From the NCBI RefSeq assembly GCF_002087085.1, contig NZ_MWQY01000003.1:248001-275387 (forward strand): a DNA stretch of 27,387 nucleotides, in the 5' to 3' direction. The position numbers were made by a program. Shown piece after piece: positions 12,001-21,000 of the stretch (positions are counted from its first letter, which is position 1; each line of letters starts with the position of its first letter).

Positions 12001-15000
12001 TCGGCCATCTCCTTTGACACAACCAGCCGCAGTTTCTCCTGTGCCCTGGATATGGCTACGTTCAATAAATTCGGGTTATCAACGAAATCGTTGGCTTCGT
12101 TTGACACTGTTGTTATAATCATAACGCGCTTTTCTCTGCCCTGATACTTATGTACCGTGTCTACTTCAACCTCCTCTGAACCGATAGTCGCCCGTATTCG
12201 AGCGGTCTGTTCCCGGTAAGGAGAGACAATACCGATATCACAGGAATTAATCGTCCCCAGCTCGGGTAAAACATTTTCTATAATTTCGTCAATCTGACGC
12301 TGATTGAAGGTACCCCGTGCATGCCGGCCCTCCACAGTCATATAAACCTTTATGACATCGGATTCACCCTGATCGCTGGTCATAACTAGCAGCTCTCCCC
12401 CGTAAAACTGCTGGTTACAGAACTGAATAATCTTCGGGTGGCACCGGTAATGCTCACGCAGCAATGTCTCAGGGATTTCTGAAAAAGCCGATCGCACCGC
12501 AGAAAGCAGGTTATGTTCCTCATACCTTGCATAGTGCGGTACATCGTAGCGTTGTACTACCTGTATAGCCTTTTCTTTATCCTGTTCCGACAATACGTTG
12601 GGAAGCTGCATGGGATCACCGACTATTACAAGCTTTTTTGCGCAGCCCATGGCAAGAACACCGTTCAAAAGATCCACTTGGCTTGTTTCGTCAACAATAA
12701 CGCAGTCAAACATATACCCGTTCCGGACCGAAGTTATCACTGAGAACGTCGTGCTAAGTATAAGAGGATATTCATCAAGGAAATCTTCAGGCTGCCGCCA
12801 GAGATCCTGAAGGGCAAAAATCCTTCTCGTTTTATTGTTATAGTGCTTTGCAAGACGATGCTTTAGAAGTCGCATCGAAAGGGCGGTCAACAGTTCAAGA
12901 CTTTCATTAAAGCGAAATTCCTTCAGCGAAACTTCCAGCTTTGTACGTCTGTTTTCCAGGTCCTCTATTGTGCGCAGGTAGTAGGCTTTTTGCAGTATAG
13001 CAATCCGTTCCTCGATGCCAAGATCAAACAGAATGCGTCCGGCCATACCGAATCGCAGCAACAACAATAGCTTTTGCAAAATCCCGGTACGACAGCCTGT
13101 TACTCCTGCAGTGCCTGGTGATTGTCTTTGATTTTTAGTATATTGGCGTTTTGCTTTCCTTTCATACGCCATCCAATATTTCATCAGATCCTGTGCAGGT
13201 GTTTCAGGCTGAAACGACCGATCTCTTATGCTTAAGTTTCGGCCATTAAATTCCTGACGGAATTTCTCAAAATGAGTTAATTCTAGTTTGAGTGCATCGA
13301 TCTTTTGAATAACACCAGACAACTCGTTCTTTAGTTTGAATCCTTTATCAATTTCCTGATTCAGACTACGAATTTTATTATATACAGCCGCTGTCTGCCC
13401 AATGGGGATAATCGGCAGTTGAACCAGAGTATCCGTTTGACCCTCTATAAACGCCGTTTTGTTTTTAGCACTACCAAGAAATGCGGCTACAAAATTCAGC
13501 TCGTATTTTTTTAGTTTCTCAAGTACGTTTGCCGTAGCGGAATTGTTACTGGATACCACAGCTACTTTTTTCCCTTCCAGCAGCATGTTTCCAATTAAAT
13601 TCAGTATCGTCTGCGTTTTTCCAGTACCCGGCGGTCCTTGGATTATGGATACTGGATGCCGCAGTGCTTTTTCAAGCGCCATTTTCTGGCTCATGTTACA
13701 GCCAAAGGGTAAAATGAGGCTCGGATCGCCCCCTGACGAACTCGAATCAAGGATGGAAGGTTTATCCCGAAGAAAACTGAAAAGAATACTTTCCTGTGAA
13801 ATGATGTCCAAATACCGATATTTCATCGCAAGAAGTGAAGAACCTTCATCCGTCCGCAGTGATACACATTCAGCAAGCTCACGCAAATACGCGAGAACAT
13901 CTTTGCTGCGTCCTTCCGGAGTGGTCATCCGCTGAATGGAGAACTCAGAGAACCGGCAGCATCTGCTGCTTCCAGTTCCGTGAAAGATTTTTACCCAATG
14001 TCCGAAGCGCAATACCTCATTTACATCAGACAAAAGATCGCCTTCAATAAAAACACAGCAGTTATCGACTGATATAGATTCGGGATTTGAGAAAAATTCA
14101 ACATTGCTCCGGAAATAAGGGTATGATTTCCCGCTTTTATAGGTTACGACAGTGCGTTCGTTATTAAGGCTTATGTGTCGGATTTCATCCGTTTTGTCCT
14201 CGTCCTTGATGATGACGAGATTTTGCTTCGAGTTTATAGTCATTGTTTCCATGTACTTTATCGCCTGAAACCGGACACAGATAAAAATTCTCTAACTATT
14301 CTAAACCGAATCACCTGTTTACGCCAGCTTTCGATTTACTGACTTCGATTGCTCTTTGGCTACACTTACGTCAAGGACCTATCATTGGACTATGGACAGC
14401 ATCGAAACGATACAGAACTTCCATACCCGCAAGGCGCGCAGACAGTAGCAGCAGGCCCGGGAACAGGGAGAAACCTATGAATCGATGCTGCCGGACTTTG
14501 TTATTGGCATTCTTGAGAGGGACTCCGTGGCTGTGATGATCATACTATTCGGCCAATAAGAAACATATTCTCAGGTTTATAGATCTGCTGATACTTAGCT
14601 CCCTTTGAACTTCCTCCATCATAAATATTTTTATCCCCCCATAATTTTCTTTATCATAAACCGGTCATAAACCCCCGAATTTCGGTCGAATTCCCGCTAA
14701 ATTCCCCTTGGCACAGATACTGCATTAAAAGTGCTATGGTCAGTGTCCTACAACAGCGTCTGTTATTCCCGCTGCTTCGAATTACAGGAATCGCGGGGCT
14801 TCTGCTTCTCCTGTACATCTCTCTGCATCTTCTGCTTCCCGGGCAATTTCCCTCTCTGCCGGCCCTGACACCTTCCCAGGGGGCACTCCTGGCAGCCGTG
14901 CTTTCCGTTGTCTCCTTGGTACTGCTTCCCGGCTACAAGAAAAGCAGCTTCTTTGTTTCCCTCGGCGTCGGGTCCGGTTTTATCATTCTTGCCCTGTATC

Positions 15001-18000: not shown

Positions 18001-21000
18001 GGAACCGCCGCTGAGTCGGTTCAGAATAAAACTCCGCAGGAGCCTTTCCCTTCCACGTCGAACCCGGCAGCCGGCATTGCCTCAACTTTACCCCCGGGAA
18101 CTGGACCGGGAACGGCGGGAGTTTGAACGGACTTCTTTACTGGCTCGCTACTGCTCGAGCAAAGCAATCCTTGTCCGGACATTTACCTCGGAGCTCTTTC
18201 GGCTCTATCTCGACGCCATGCAGCTTATCATCGAGAATCCGCCTAGCAAAGCGGGACTGCACAATATCGAACCTCTGCTGAACCGTCTTGAACGGATGCA
18301 TACAAAATCACTGAACCATTTTAGGGAGGAGAATTATGGGTACATGGAGTAACGAAAAAAGCGAAAACAGGGACATCCAGCGCTATGCGCCGAAGGACCT
18401 GACCAACAGCACGGAGTTCACCAAGGAGCTTCACAGCATCAACAGCAACCAGACCCTCACCGTGCTGGACAAGCACCGCTCGAAAAAGCAGCTCATGCGG
18501 GCGGTATTTGCCGCCAAGCAGCAGGAGATTTCCCACCACCTGGACTCCTATTCCAACTATCTGCTCGCCCGCAAGGATGTTGAGGCCAAGTCCATCGCCC
18601 TGGAAGCCCAGAAGGCGATCATGGTGCTGGAAAAAGAGCAGCTCAAGATGATGAAGGAGATGGGCTTGTCCCACACCGACGAGATCGCAGAAACCCTCAT
18701 GAAGGCCGGTCTCATGATGACGGAGAAACTGAAGGAGGTGGAGGAATCCCGCATGGAAGCTGAAATAAAGCTGATGACCCTCACGAACATCCGGCGAGTC
18801 TGGGACAAGACCAACAGCCGTATAATGGAGAGCGTCGACACCTATATGGACGAACTGTGGGAGAAGGAACATGGACGCTGATAATGTGGTAATATCGGAT
18901 AGAACTGTTTTATCTTTCAAGGTATTTAACACCGAAAGTGAGGATACGGAATGATATTTGGCCCTGTGATTATACGCAAATGCCCTGAATGTTTCGGCCA
19001 GATCCAGCAATACACCCTGGATTCATATAATACATTTTGTTTTGTTCCACGGACAGATGGGAGACGACCGATCCCTTTTAGTGACATATTCCACATATGC
19101 CCCTTCTGTAACGCGGCTCTGTTTATAAACGAGTTGGAAAAAATCGGTGAAACTGAACCGGAAATAGTAAAAGAAACCTTCCCTCAATCAAGATCCGCCA
19201 AGTTCTTGAATATGCACGATTATCTTTCTGTGCTCGAAAAAGAAGTTTTTGATATCCACAAAAAGAAGTTCCTGCGTATTCGCGCATGGTGGTCTGGAAA
19301 CGATGACAGGATTCTGCAGCACAAAACTGATCAAGTCCTGTCAGAAGACGAAAAAGACAATTTACATAAACTGTATGAACTGCTTGTCCCATCTGATGAT
19401 GAGGAACGAATGATGATAGCGGAAATAAAGCGGGAATTGGGTGAGTATGACGAAGCACGGCAGCATCTTACAGATCCTTTTCCCCAGGAATTCACAAGAA
19501 TTGTTTCTACCATCATGAAGTTGATTGAAGAAGCAGATCCACGCGTAGCAGAGGTTAAATAGCGTAATGAGAAGTGGAGGTCTTCCTTTTTAAAGTATGG
19601 GATTTATTCTATCTGTCGCCATAGCGGTCGTATCGACTTTCCTTTGCCTCAAGTATCTCGACTACCTTGACTACTATAAAAAGGATAAACGTACGGAGCG
19701 AATCCGTTATATCGGTTTTGTAGCGGGAATCATCAGCATTATCCCCACTTTTATCAACTACGAGATTAACGAACTACTGTTCGGTTGGATGGTCAACGGC
19801 CCATTCCTCTACCACTTTCTTATCGTCGGCTTCTCCGAAGAGATAGCCAAGTATACCATGCTCATTGCGATGGTATATTTCTTTCGTTCGATAAAGGAAC
19901 CCCAGGACGGTATCCTTCAGGGTGCTGCAGTCGGGGCAGGCTTCGCGTTTTTTGAGAACCTTAAATACGCCCTCGATTATGGCCCAATGAATACGATCAT
20001 CCGTTCGATCCTTTGCACACCCGGACACATGATGTACACTGCCCTGGCAGGCTATTTCCTGGCGACGGCGGTCTACTCCAATCTCGAAGTCCGGGATGAT
20101 CGATCTTCCTGGATTGCGGTCGGCGCCTTCATTCCTACCGCCTTCATTCATGCCCTGTACAACGCTTCCTATATCTGGGCCTATGTCTACAGCACAGGCT
20201 ATAATACTCTGGAAGGTCTTGCCTACCTTGTCGATCTGCTCACTCTTTTTATTACTGCACACGTTTTCCGCTCCCTCATCGAACACTCCCCCTACTTCGT
20301 CTACCCCTACTCCCGGTCGAAACAGGCTATTCGATCCCTTCTCAGGGGACTCAAACTGAATCCCTCGAGCTTTGTACTGAACCGACGCCTGGGGCTCTAC
20401 TACCTGGCGGCGGGCAGATACCCAGAGGCCCTCAAACGCATCCGTTACTGTCGGAGCCGGCAGCCGAAAAAACACAATACCTGGGACGTGCTGGAAGGGA
20501 TCGCCCTCATGGGAAGCGGCAAAAGCGACGAAGGGCTGCAGCTCGTCACCCGGGCGCGGGAGAACTTCGGAAAAGGAGAGCGCTTCCGCATCGAACTCTT
20601 CCTGCAGCGCATCATCCGGGACGCCGGGCTCAAACTCCGGGTACGGAACATACTGAATCCCCGTGTGTTCAAACACAACCACTACTTCGACCGCAGACGC
20701 AAGTACGGCCCCCGGGACTACTGGAAAAGCGACAGCAGAATACTGAAAGAGAGGCTCGAGGAGTACAGCGAGCTGTTACGGGAGAAGCGGCAGATGGAAA
20801 GCCGGTAGGTAGAGGATTCTTCATTCATGGTGAGGTATCCTCAAGTACCTGACTCAGAAATGCTTTTATCCGAAAACAGCGTGGTAAATCTCTTCTATTC
20901 TCAGGATTTCATCATCAGTCAGCTGATGAAATTCCCTGTCCCGTGCCCTTTTCGAAAGCAGGCCATTATGCTGTCCAAGGAACCGGAACAGCAAGTCCAC

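Follow-up and report, generated by a model that had tools for sequence, protein, structure and literature searches.

Gene organization of the locus

The window, which denotes here the whole 27-kb stretch of DNA that was analyzed, stops at the end of its contig and contains seven co-oriented open reading frames on the plus strand, from 14736 to 20808, as the survey's finding had proposed. The first of them, g1 (14736..16058), encodes a membrane protein with four to five transmembrane helices and a coiled coil, whose C-terminal domain is transglutaminase-like. It is followed by g2 (16058..16933), whose product is predicted to span the membrane with four helices and to extend a helical tail of about 155 residues into the cytoplasm, and by g3 (16930..17448), whose product is predicted to combine one membrane helix and a coiled coil with an alpha/beta domain in the periplasm. 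Two genes for soluble proteins come next, which are the fast-evolving g4 (17441..18352), with no known family, and g5 (18336..18881), which encodes 181 amino acids and is by far the most conserved of the cassette. The last two genes encode a zinc-ribbon protein (g6, 18951..19562) and an intramembrane protease of the PrsW type, the C-terminal part of which is a TPR region (g7, 19597..20808). On the minus strand, a gene for a TDE1717-type outer-membrane beta-barrel, with matches to PF13568/PF13505 and NF049866, lies at 10550..11206; with its start re-read as 11206 the product has a signal peptide. The genes flanking the cassette match the MkoA/MkoC (E 4.1e-47) and PDC-S24 (E 8.9e-198) models, as had been reported, and they are located on the strand opposite to it. 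The claim that the cassette falls outside the PADLOC families also stood, as none was assigned to any of the seven genes at E≤0.01, while Pfam gave no family above its cut-off for g2 to g6.

The comparison set consisted of 49 fetched loci, 45 of which were distinct related loci. The combination of g1, g2 and g3 was present in 14 of 19 related loci with at least 4.3 kb of sequence upstream of g5, in agreement with the earlier observation that the first five genes recur in the same order, and g2 with g3 was present in 22 of 25 loci with at least 2.6 kb upstream of g5. Each gene from g1 to g4 overlaps the next one at its stop codon, and the dN/dS value of each of the five genes was below 0.5, which indicates purifying selection. 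The conserved unit is thus g1–g5 (14736–18881), five translationally coupled genes that form one operon, and the overlapping codons, the constant order and the purifying selection on each gene argue that their products work as one machine.

The survey had counted all seven genes, including g6 and the PrsW gene, as one obligatory machine. Such an arrangement would agree with their co-orientation and close spacing in the window, while the gaps between g5 and g6 and between g6 and g7, as opposed to the overlaps within g1–g5, speak against it. A tblastn search with g6 gave no match in the 49 fetched loci, and the gene is missing at the syntenic locus of the sister species G404, where g7 comes straight after g5. 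Therefore, g6 is a lineage-specific insertion in the studied genome that does not belong to the cassette, and its membership of an obligatory machine is contradicted by these searches. The GC content falls to 0.43 at g6. In turn, g7 adjoins the cassette in just 9 of the 45 distinct loci, which makes it an optional companion. Hence, the notion of one machine holds for g1–g5, while an obligatory machine of seven genes is very improbable. The barrel gene is likewise an optional companion, since 7 of the 45 distinct loci have a homologue of it next to the cassette.

Predicted folds and conserved residues of the cassette proteins

The transglutaminase-like core that the survey had seen in g1 was recovered with a PF01841 (Transglut_core) score of 36 bits (cut-off 23). 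Together with the triad of Cys343, His373 and Asp418, which is invariant across 16 sequences, it places g1 in the transglutaminase-like superfamily. Judging from hydropathy and the positive-inside rule, the C-terminal part with the triad is probably located in the periplasm. The g1 protein could thus be anchored next to g2 and g3 as a transglutaminase-like cysteine enzyme on a periplasmic coiled-coil stalk, catalytically intact as far as the triad indicates, which may cut or cross-link envelope proteins or incoming proteins in the periplasm.

The predicted fold of g2 resembles the ZorA/ExbB/TolQ subunits, with ZorA chains among its best matches, and the modelled domain of g3 resembles TolR/ExbD; in both cases the likeness is in fold and none is seen in sequence. 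The lone membrane helix of g3 contains Glu14, which is invariant in 52 sequences and aligns with the ExbD aspartate in a weak hhalign alignment, and its periplasmic alpha/beta domain has two invariant cysteines. Neither protein matched MotA_ExbB (PF01618) or ExbD (PF02472) in Pfam at E≤1, there was no OmpA-family Pfam match in g3, and hhalign against 13 ExbB and 30 ExbD sequences of spirochaetes gave probabilities of 0.1% and 0.4%. The distant relatives of g2 and g3 also had no MotA/ExbB or ExbD domains. The structural models suggest that g2 is a candidate ZorA/ExbB/TolQ-like motor subunit and g3 a candidate TolR/ExbD-like subunit, which could form an ion-driven, stator-like pair in the inner membrane.

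The mean column identity of g4 was 27% in 18 sequences, with an RLQ motif and few other positions kept, and searches of Pfam, NCBIfam, PHROG, PADLOC and Atlas gave no lead. The strong conservation of g5 noted in the survey was evident from 103 relatives at 52–82% identity and from 31 invariant alignment columns, and the dN/dS value of 0.023 against the sister species indicates extreme constraint. In the reduced loci L004, L013 and L031, g5 stays beside the PrsW gene or the activator gene described below. The variable g4 and the extremely conserved g5 may both act at the cytoplasmic tail of g2. The degree of constraint on g5 would be unusual in a defence gene and counts against an anti-phage reading. 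It resembles that of housekeeping genes, as would be expected if the cassette were instead an inducible module for envelope stress or maintenance, a spirochaete counterpart of the sigma-54/PspF phage-shock or Tol-Pal systems without an immune function. Such a module would keep membranes energized or tethered under stress, and it would occur in variable islands because it is accessory.

In g7, the PrsW domain PF13367 matched with 98.7 bits (E 4.2e-28; cut-off 23.5), in addition to the TPR region. The NF033739 model also matched (E 1.5e-23), with a score of 83.6 bits that is below the NCBIfam equivalog cut-off of 225. The sequence of g7 contains EExxK, FxxxE and HxxxN-type motifs, which we take to be the PrsW motifs. 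Where it is present, the protease may process some membrane component.

Predicted sigma-54 promoters and an RtcR-like activator

A sigma-54 (-24/-12) promoter-like element, TGGCAC-N5-CTGCA, is located on the plus strand at 14709..14724, 11 nt upstream of the g1 ATG. A second one, TGGCATGCTTTCTGCA, is located on the minus strand at 11245..11260, 38 nt upstream of the barrel ATG, and is followed by a Shine-Dalgarno sequence. Both predicted elements have the -24/-12 form that belongs to an RtcR-type sigma-54 regulon. The strict motif has 38 matches on both strands of the whole 4.2-Mb genome, in which rpoN is present, and the element before g1 is kept with identical spacing in the sister species. 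In the 45 related loci (432,617 bp) the motif was found 24 times, and 12 of these matches fall in the 200 nt that precede g1 or g2. A strict element precedes g1 in 7 of 16 related loci, and a relaxed match was observed in six more. When g1 is missing or separated, the element is found before g2 (five of five loci); this set was limited to loci with the g2 N-terminus matched in full, and L013, L023 and L049, which have no sigma-54 element before g2, were left out of it. The g7 gene of locus L004 has its own sigma-54 element, while the rtcB gene of the studied genome, located outside the cassette on contig C27, has none. The cassette is accordingly predicted to be under sigma-54 promoter control.

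In 14 of the 45 distinct loci, and also in the sister species, a gene for a full-length related bEBP lies at most 1.8 kb away from the cassette. This activator consists of a CARF-type sensor, AAA+ and HTH domains. Of 11 proteins scanned, five had an N-terminal domain that scored above the RtcR cut-off of Pfam, and RtcR was the best NCBIfam model for all six activators tested, with scores below the equivalog cut-off. In the sister species the activator gene directly follows g7, and it is 82% identical to its orthologue on contig C9 of the studied genome. The window itself has no activator gene. We infer that the C9-encoded activator acts in trans on the sigma-54 promoters of the window. A sensor of the RNA-damage type probably turns the cassette on, such that sigma-54 RNA polymerase would transcribe g1–g5 when the RtcR-like activator fires, and not otherwise. 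Neither RtcA nor RtcB was found in the cassette or in the 136 neighbouring genes that were scanned. Two previous studies describe RtcR-like CARF activators that are unlinked to Rtc genes and adjoin restriction–modification (R-M) systems and defence superoperons (PMC4012209, PMC11090510).

The sigma-54 control of membrane proteins could also be reconciled with an envelope-stress module, because it resembles the Psp response, a parallel made in PMC4012209. On the other hand, none of the seven proteins matched the PspA/IM30 family (Pfam E≤1), and the activator has a CARF-type RtcR-like sensor, while PspF is without a sensor domain.

Distribution and genomic neighbourhood

The cassette is carried by two of the seven genomes of its order. 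It is missing from four of the five other genomes of the same genus, which are 94–98% complete, and this patchiness is not what an envelope-stress module would lead one to expect. In an even sample of 400 other Spirochaetota genomes no good match was detected, and four marginal ones had E values from 3e-5 to 7e-4. The absence from 400 genomes reported in the survey is therefore correct for this sample and does not extend to the phylum, as 31 cassette-related loci are present in species-representative spirochaete MAGs. The named relatives are all spirochaetes, with one record bearing a Calditrichaeota label too, and the 103 relatives of g5 (about a hundred 90%-identity clusters) come, with few exceptions, from spirochaetes of marine or saline environments.

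This restriction to spirochaetes, together with the stator-like folds of g2 and g3 and the combination of a probably periplasmic enzyme with a putative outer-membrane partner, could suggest another envelope task of these bacteria, with an incidental island position. The cassette might, for example, be an accessory stator or remodelling factor that serves cell shape or the periplasmic flagella, or it might be used in delivery or competition. This explanation is improbable, considering that no flagellar or secretion genes were found among the 136 neighbours scanned, that the sampled phylum genomes were negative save for the marginal matches, with patchy occurrence within the genus, and that the regulator is RtcR-like.

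In 13 of the 24 loci examined, known defence genes were located at a distance of about 6 kb or less (raw count, PADLOC E≤1e-10). They included BREX, R-M, Fic, NERD/UvrD helicase, RhuM and WYL genes, and in locus L010 a Fic gene is inserted within the cassette itself. These neighbours argue against an envelope-stress role. The latter role is favored by the other 11 loci, which have no PADLOC neighbour; several loci lie amid transport or sugar-metabolism genes, and some are beside Mla, ABC-transport or sugar genes. The survey had derived the defence role from a single island. That reading is still contextual, and it is now partly supported beyond the single island by the defence genes near 13 of 24 loci, the patchiness within the genus, the sigma-54 promoters and the RtcR-like CARF activators.

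A model for the function of the cassette

We consider g1–g5 to be an inducible module that spans the envelope and most likely acts against phage, a reading to which we assign a probability of roughly 0.45. What we infer in this reading is that the cassette has a role in defence and contains a motor, and also the topology and the partners of its proteins. The products of g1–g5 would assemble into an envelope-spanning apparatus, with the co-regulated beta-barrel protein as a putative outer-membrane partner of g1, and would protect from phage in that a signal of RNA damage or infection induces the cell to alter or sacrifice its envelope. A motor-like apparatus across the envelope accounts for the parts of the cassette no less well than the membrane-acting abortive infection proposed in the survey, and for this reason the envelope-stress role is a serious rival, even though it appears somewhat unlikely. 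In addition to the g5 constraint and the neighbours described above, it is favored by the likeness of g2 and g3 to TolQR/ExbBD in predicted fold, the periplasmic coiled-coil inner-membrane protein and the co-regulated barrel, which recall Tol and Ton.

In its most specific form, the anti-phage reading describes a new family, in which a CARF-type, RtcR-like sensor of RNA damage or infection turns on, through sigma-54, a proton-driven Tol/Zorya-like motor with a stalked periplasmic transglutaminase-like protease and two soluble proteins, which executes defence by energized remodelling or sacrifice of the envelope, without a nuclease. We regard this complete scheme as doubtful, while the cassette may be a new inducible envelope defence. 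If the scheme were true, it would join three subjects of hitherto separate study, which are CARF/RtcR RNA-damage sensing, sigma-54 'all-or-none' transcription and 5:2-type immune membrane motors (Zorya), with a periplasmic cysteine enzyme added as an output, and it would provide the RtcR-like activators of defence islands with a concrete, compact regulon. The four unannotated families g2–g5 would then gain a testable framework. The reach of these conclusions is limited by the narrow distribution of the cassette.

Comparison with known systems

The g7 protein matches the site-1 protease PrsW in the PF13367 and NF033739 models; it differs by the extra C-terminal TPR region, the sub-equivalog score and the lack of an anti-sigma factor gene nearby. 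The TgpA protein (PA2873) of Pseudomonas aeruginosa resides in the inner membrane and has a transglutaminase-like domain in the periplasm, as predicted for g1, the likeness being in the shared Pfam domain. A critical role in viability is reported for it in PMC3507681, which favors the envelope-stress role. TgpA belongs to a different operon, while g1 has a coiled-coil stalk and is a part of an accessory cassette. The Psp system is similar to the predicted behaviour of the cassette in that stress induces, through sigma-54, a set of membrane-associated proteins with a soluble helical protein among them. The two differ in gene content, as no PspA/IM30, PspB or PspC match was found in the cassette, and in the sensor domain of the cassette activator.

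The similarity to the Tol-Pal and TonB-ExbB-ExbD systems consists in the predicted folds of g2 (TolQ/ExbB) and g3 (TolR/ExbD), in g1 as a third anchored protein, which would have a globular domain at its C-terminus and a long helical stalk in the periplasm, and in a gene for an outer-membrane partner. There is no sequence similarity, however, and the cassette is accessory and not core. The four to five membrane helices and the enzyme domain of g1 contrast with the single-helix design of TolA and TonB, and the genome has its own separate ExbBD and MotA genes elsewhere.

The Zorya system, described in PMC11946911 as a ZorA5B2 motor with soluble effectors, has an adjacent pair of inner-membrane proteins as predicted for the cassette, one with several membrane helices and a helical tail in the cytoplasm and the other with a single helix and an essential acidic residue. 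As in a ZorB-type subunit, g3 has a single helix with a conserved acidic residue, Glu14. Further similarities are the soluble partners encoded downstream, the location in defence islands, and ZorA among the best fold matches of g2. The differences are that no ZorA, ZorB, ZorC, ZorD or ZorE model matched g1–g7, that the g2 tail has about 155 residues while that of ZorA is roughly 70 nm long, and that g3 has a modelled TolR/ExbD-like domain in place of an OmpA-like peptidoglycan-binding domain. The cassette is also without a nuclease, contains a transglutaminase-like membrane enzyme, and is predicted to be induced by sigma-54.

The RtcR operons differ from the cassette in that the latter has no RtcA or RtcB, its activators score below the RtcR equivalog cut-off, and its putative targets are membrane proteins and not RNA repair enzymes or nucleases. 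The similarity to RtcR operons and superoperons (PMC4012209, PMC11090510) is in the sigma-54 promoter and the CARF-AAA+-HTH activator with RtcR as the best family, and the cassette and the RtcR-associated superoperons share neighbours such as R-M, BREX, BrnT, RhuM and helicase genes.

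Organization of the gene cassette and its conservation in related loci

Seven co-oriented ORFs, here termed g1 to g7, were read on the plus strand of the window from 14736 to 20808 (g1, 14736–16058; g7, 19597–20808). The first five, which we refer to as the cassette, lie head to tail: base 16058 is common to g1 and g2, and overlaps of 4 nt (g2/g3), 8 nt (g3/g4) and 17 nt (g4/g5) follow, while gaps of 69 nt and 34 nt precede g6 and g7, respectively. Only g1 (Transglut_core, residues 301–380, 36 bits versus a cut-off of 23) and g7 (PrsW, E 4.2e-28, plus TPR) were named by Pfam among the seven. 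NCBIfam and PHROGs gave nothing further for g2 to g6, and PADLOC models at E ≤ 0.01 matched none of g1 to g7. A description of the cassette was not found in the literature and libraries searched.

The surroundings agree with the survey's finding. The genes on either side are read from the minus strand. One codes for an SF1 helicase carrying DUF2726 at its C-terminus, whose match to MkoA (4.1e-47) is confined to the helicase core, and the other for a Fic protein (PDC-S24, 8.9e-198). Elsewhere, too, the window, which ends with the contig, is rich in defence genes (HmaC/B/A, a GmrSD-like gene, AbiEi/Eii, a TOTE primase-helicase). The HmaC-like gene (2–1123, minus strand) extends past the window start; it carries DUF499 with a Swt1-type HEPN domain (E 4.9e-29) fused at the N-terminus. 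The ORF at 7450–8394 (minus strand), which codes for 314 aa and separates the GmrSD-like gene from the Hma system, was unmatched in Pfam, PADLOC, NCBIfam and PHROGs. The TOTE gene is split or broken, with the primase (AEP-TOTE, E 1e-88) and the start of the helicase domain in one ORF (24567–26054, plus strand) and the remaining helicase in another, 45 nt away (26100–26990, plus strand).

To collect related loci, the best-conserved protein, g5, was used as the anchor; 103 relatives share 52–82% identity with it. The named ones are from spirochaetes, and one record is additionally labelled Calditrichaeota. The 31 loci from species-representative genomes, all of them spirochaete MAGs, and 18 metagenome loci gave 45 distinct loci (numbered with the prefix L). 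Where the sequence upstream of g5 extends for 4.3 kb or more (19 loci), g1, g2 and g3 were present in the window order in 14; where it extends for 2.6 kb or more (25 loci), g2 together with g3 was present in 22. The gene g1 is absent from L015 and L016, and in the reduced loci L004, L013 and L031 g5 is retained beside PrsW or a sigma-54 activator. The g7 gene accompanies the cassette in 9/45 distinct loci, and a homologue of the TDE1717-type outer-membrane beta-barrel gene of the window (10550–11206, minus strand) in 7/45. The zinc-ribbon gene g6 was included in every tblastn query set against the fetched related loci and gave no match. In the syntenic locus (L058) of a sister genome of the same genus, G404, g7 directly follows g5, so that window positions 18880–19647 are an insertion. 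Hence, the recurring core of five genes that had been proposed earlier was borne out, while the proposed machine of seven genes was not, as g6 is inserted and unmatched in the loci and g7 is found in 9/45.

The junction of g1 and g2 is itself a site of insertion. It is occupied in L009 by an unrelated AAA_26/DRTGG ATPase gene (5763–7607), and in L010 by a Fic gene (3887–5332; PDC-S04, E 1.6e-75). In both loci, a further sigma-54 element stands between the inserted gene and g2.

Sigma-54 promoters and the RtcR-like activator

A near-consensus sigma-54 −24/−12 element, TGGCACAGATACTGCA, is located at 14709–14724 on the plus strand, with its end 11 nt upstream of the g1 ATG. On the minus strand, TGGCATGCTTTCTGCA forms a second element at 11260–11245, 38 nt before the ATG of the barrel gene at 11206, which is preceded by a Shine-Dalgarno sequence, opens a signal peptide and is the true start of this gene. 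The strict motif occurs 38 times on both strands of the 4.2-Mb genome, versus about 16 occurrences expected from its information content, and sigma-54 itself is encoded in this genome. In the 45 related loci (432,617 bp) the motif was found 24 times, and 12 of these occurrences precede g1 or g2 by at most 200 nt. A strict match precedes g1 in 7/16 loci and a relaxed one (at least 9 of 11 positions) in a further 6. Neither was found before g1 in L008, L028 and L041; in the first two of these, the activator gene immediately precedes g1. When g1 is missing or separated from g2, and the g2 N-terminus is fully matched, g2 has its own element in 5/5 loci (L009, L010, L012, L015, L016). Outside these five, no element was found before g2 in L013, L023 and L049.

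The element and its 11-nt gap to the g1 ATG are kept in G404 and in L010 (2583–2610), so that in three genomes the start codon begins 12 nt past the end of the −12 element (14724–14738 in the window). Because this spacing is kept, the g1 mRNA may be leaderless. A search for an upstream activator site common to both window promoters gave one shared 9-mer only, which was unconvincing, and a sigma-54 element was not found for the flanking helicase gene.

A Pfam scan of 136 neighbouring ORFs showed that Sigma54_activat proteins repeatedly adjoin the cassette, and a full-length relative is located at most 1.8 kb away in 14/45 distinct loci. Of the 11 proteins scanned, 5 had an N-terminal domain that passed the Pfam gathering score for RtcR, and RtcR was the best NCBIfam model, over nearly the whole length and under the equivalog cut-off, in all six tested. 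No activator gene was found in the window. In G404 it directly follows g7, at the position of the Fic gene of the window, and is 82% identical to a gene on another contig (C9) of the window's own genome. None of the other sigma-54 activators in this genome, which has 15 in total, aligns over the N-terminal domain. The rtcB gene is located elsewhere in this genome and is not preceded by a sigma-54 element. In published comparative work, CARF-AAA+-HTH RtcR-like proteins not linked to Rtc are described as often found with restriction-modification systems and are compared with PspF (PMC4012209), and large defence superoperons headed by RtcR homologues are reported as well (PMC11090510). We conclude with good confidence that the cassette is a five-gene sigma-54-dependent operon, with PrsW and the barrel as optional companions, tied to an RtcR-like activator. 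This regulation is a new finding compared with the survey.

Other sigma-54 elements adjoining RtcR-like activators precede different gene sets. These consist of an unknown 319-aa protein, a NERD/UvrD helicase, RhuM and a methylase in L013 (3408–8189, minus strand), a beta-CASP metallo-beta-lactamase RNase in L010 (11313–13328, plus strand), and a P13-like membrane protein, the activator and PrsW in L014 (340–3894, minus strand).

Selection, distribution and defence neighbourhood

With G404 as reference, the dN/dS values were 0.023 for g5, 0.086 for g7, 0.096 for the barrel gene, 0.14 for g3, 0.23 for g2, 0.28 for g4 and 0.44 for g1, the last inflated by a frameshifted stretch in G404. Therefore, all these genes are functional. 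The cassette is real, conserved and under selection. In G404, g1 contains two indels (+2 and −1) at a distance of about 40 nt, and the frame of the activator gene appears to shift near residue 406; these changes are due to either decay or homopolymer errors in the assembly. Among 400 further Spirochaetota species genomes that were sampled, g5 had only four matches, all marginal (E 3e-5 to 7e-4). The g5 gene is present in 2/7 genomes of its own order and absent from four other genomes of the same genus, which are 94–98% complete. No g5 relatives were found in IMG/VR viral contigs, GenBank phages or PLSDB plasmids.

The defence context was analyzed using PADLOC on 72 ORFs from 24 loci, chosen from 196 listed neighbours and a few added by hand, leaving out the genes for PrsW, the activator and the barrel as well as ORFs that Pfam had named as metabolic, transport or regulatory. 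By raw count, 13/24 loci have one or more families at E ≤ 1e-10. The neighbours were BREX (L008, L024, L026), restriction-modification or methylases (L004, L005, L013), Fic (L005, L010), NERD/UvrD-type helicases (L007, L009, L013, L021), an MkoA/C-like helicase (L007), RhuM (L013, L018), WYL (L015) and a capP-like gene (L001). Anti-phage defence is the best-supported candidate purpose of the cassette. Its main rival is a role in envelope stress; in the other 11/24 loci a known defence neighbour was not found, and some of these lie amid Mla, ABC-transport, sulfatase and fucosidase genes.

The two sigma-54 promoters of the window diverge, and the space between them is occupied by the SF1 helicase-DUF2726 gene (11442–14252, minus strand); in L008 and L028 the activator has this position. 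Helicases of this or the NERD/UvrD type recur beside the cassette in L007, L009, L013 and L021. The helicase gene of the window looks recently exchanged or inserted, because its dS against G404 is 0.079, versus 0.3–1.2 for its neighbours.

Predicted architecture of the cassette proteins

The g1 protein has four to five hydrophobic helices, a coiled coil and a transglutaminase-like core, in which Cys343, His373 and Asp418 are invariant among 16 sequences. From the charge distribution around the helices, its C-terminal half is predicted to be periplasmic. Profile searches of the PDB gave only coiled-coil noise for g1 and nothing meaningful for g5, which is the constrained member of the cassette; longer fused forms of g5 were not found, which is weak evidence. 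From its constraint, the predicted partner of g5 is a polymer or a conserved target in the host. The variable member is g4, with 27% mean column identity and no usable match in the Atlas.

The model of g2 (pLDDT 80.6) contains four membrane helices and a helical tail, and its top Foldseek match was ZorA, but with E 0.07. That of g3 (pLDDT 93.1) consists of a 62-residue helix, comprising a membrane segment and a coiled coil, and an alpha/beta domain, for which the fold-match scores to TolR/ExbD-like domains were tied by RNase-H-like subdomains. Three residues of g3 are invariant among 52 sequences, namely Cys72, Cys139 and, within the membrane helix, Glu14. By sequence, Pfam gave no link of g2 or g3 to motor proteins, even with the most distant relatives, and hhalign against spirochaete ExbB and ExbD gave probabilities of 0.1–0.4%; in a single weak alignment g3 Glu14 falls on the ExbD aspartate. 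No bridge to a motor family was found in PDB profile searches, which gave only weak matches to the GldL tail (E 0.018–0.35), or in a g3 profile search of 1.84 billion representatives, which returned only 64 g3 relatives.

We propose with moderate confidence that the cassette encodes an apparatus spanning the envelope, in which a putative stator-like pair is combined with a cysteine enzyme predicted to lie in the periplasm. For the design of g1, Pseudomonas TgpA provides a precedent (PMC3507681). For Zorya, the published description gives the counterparts of these features: a 5:2 assembly, ZorB Asp26 opposite Thr/Ser residues in ZorA, a tail on ZorA and a peptidoglycan-binding domain on ZorB (PMC11946911).
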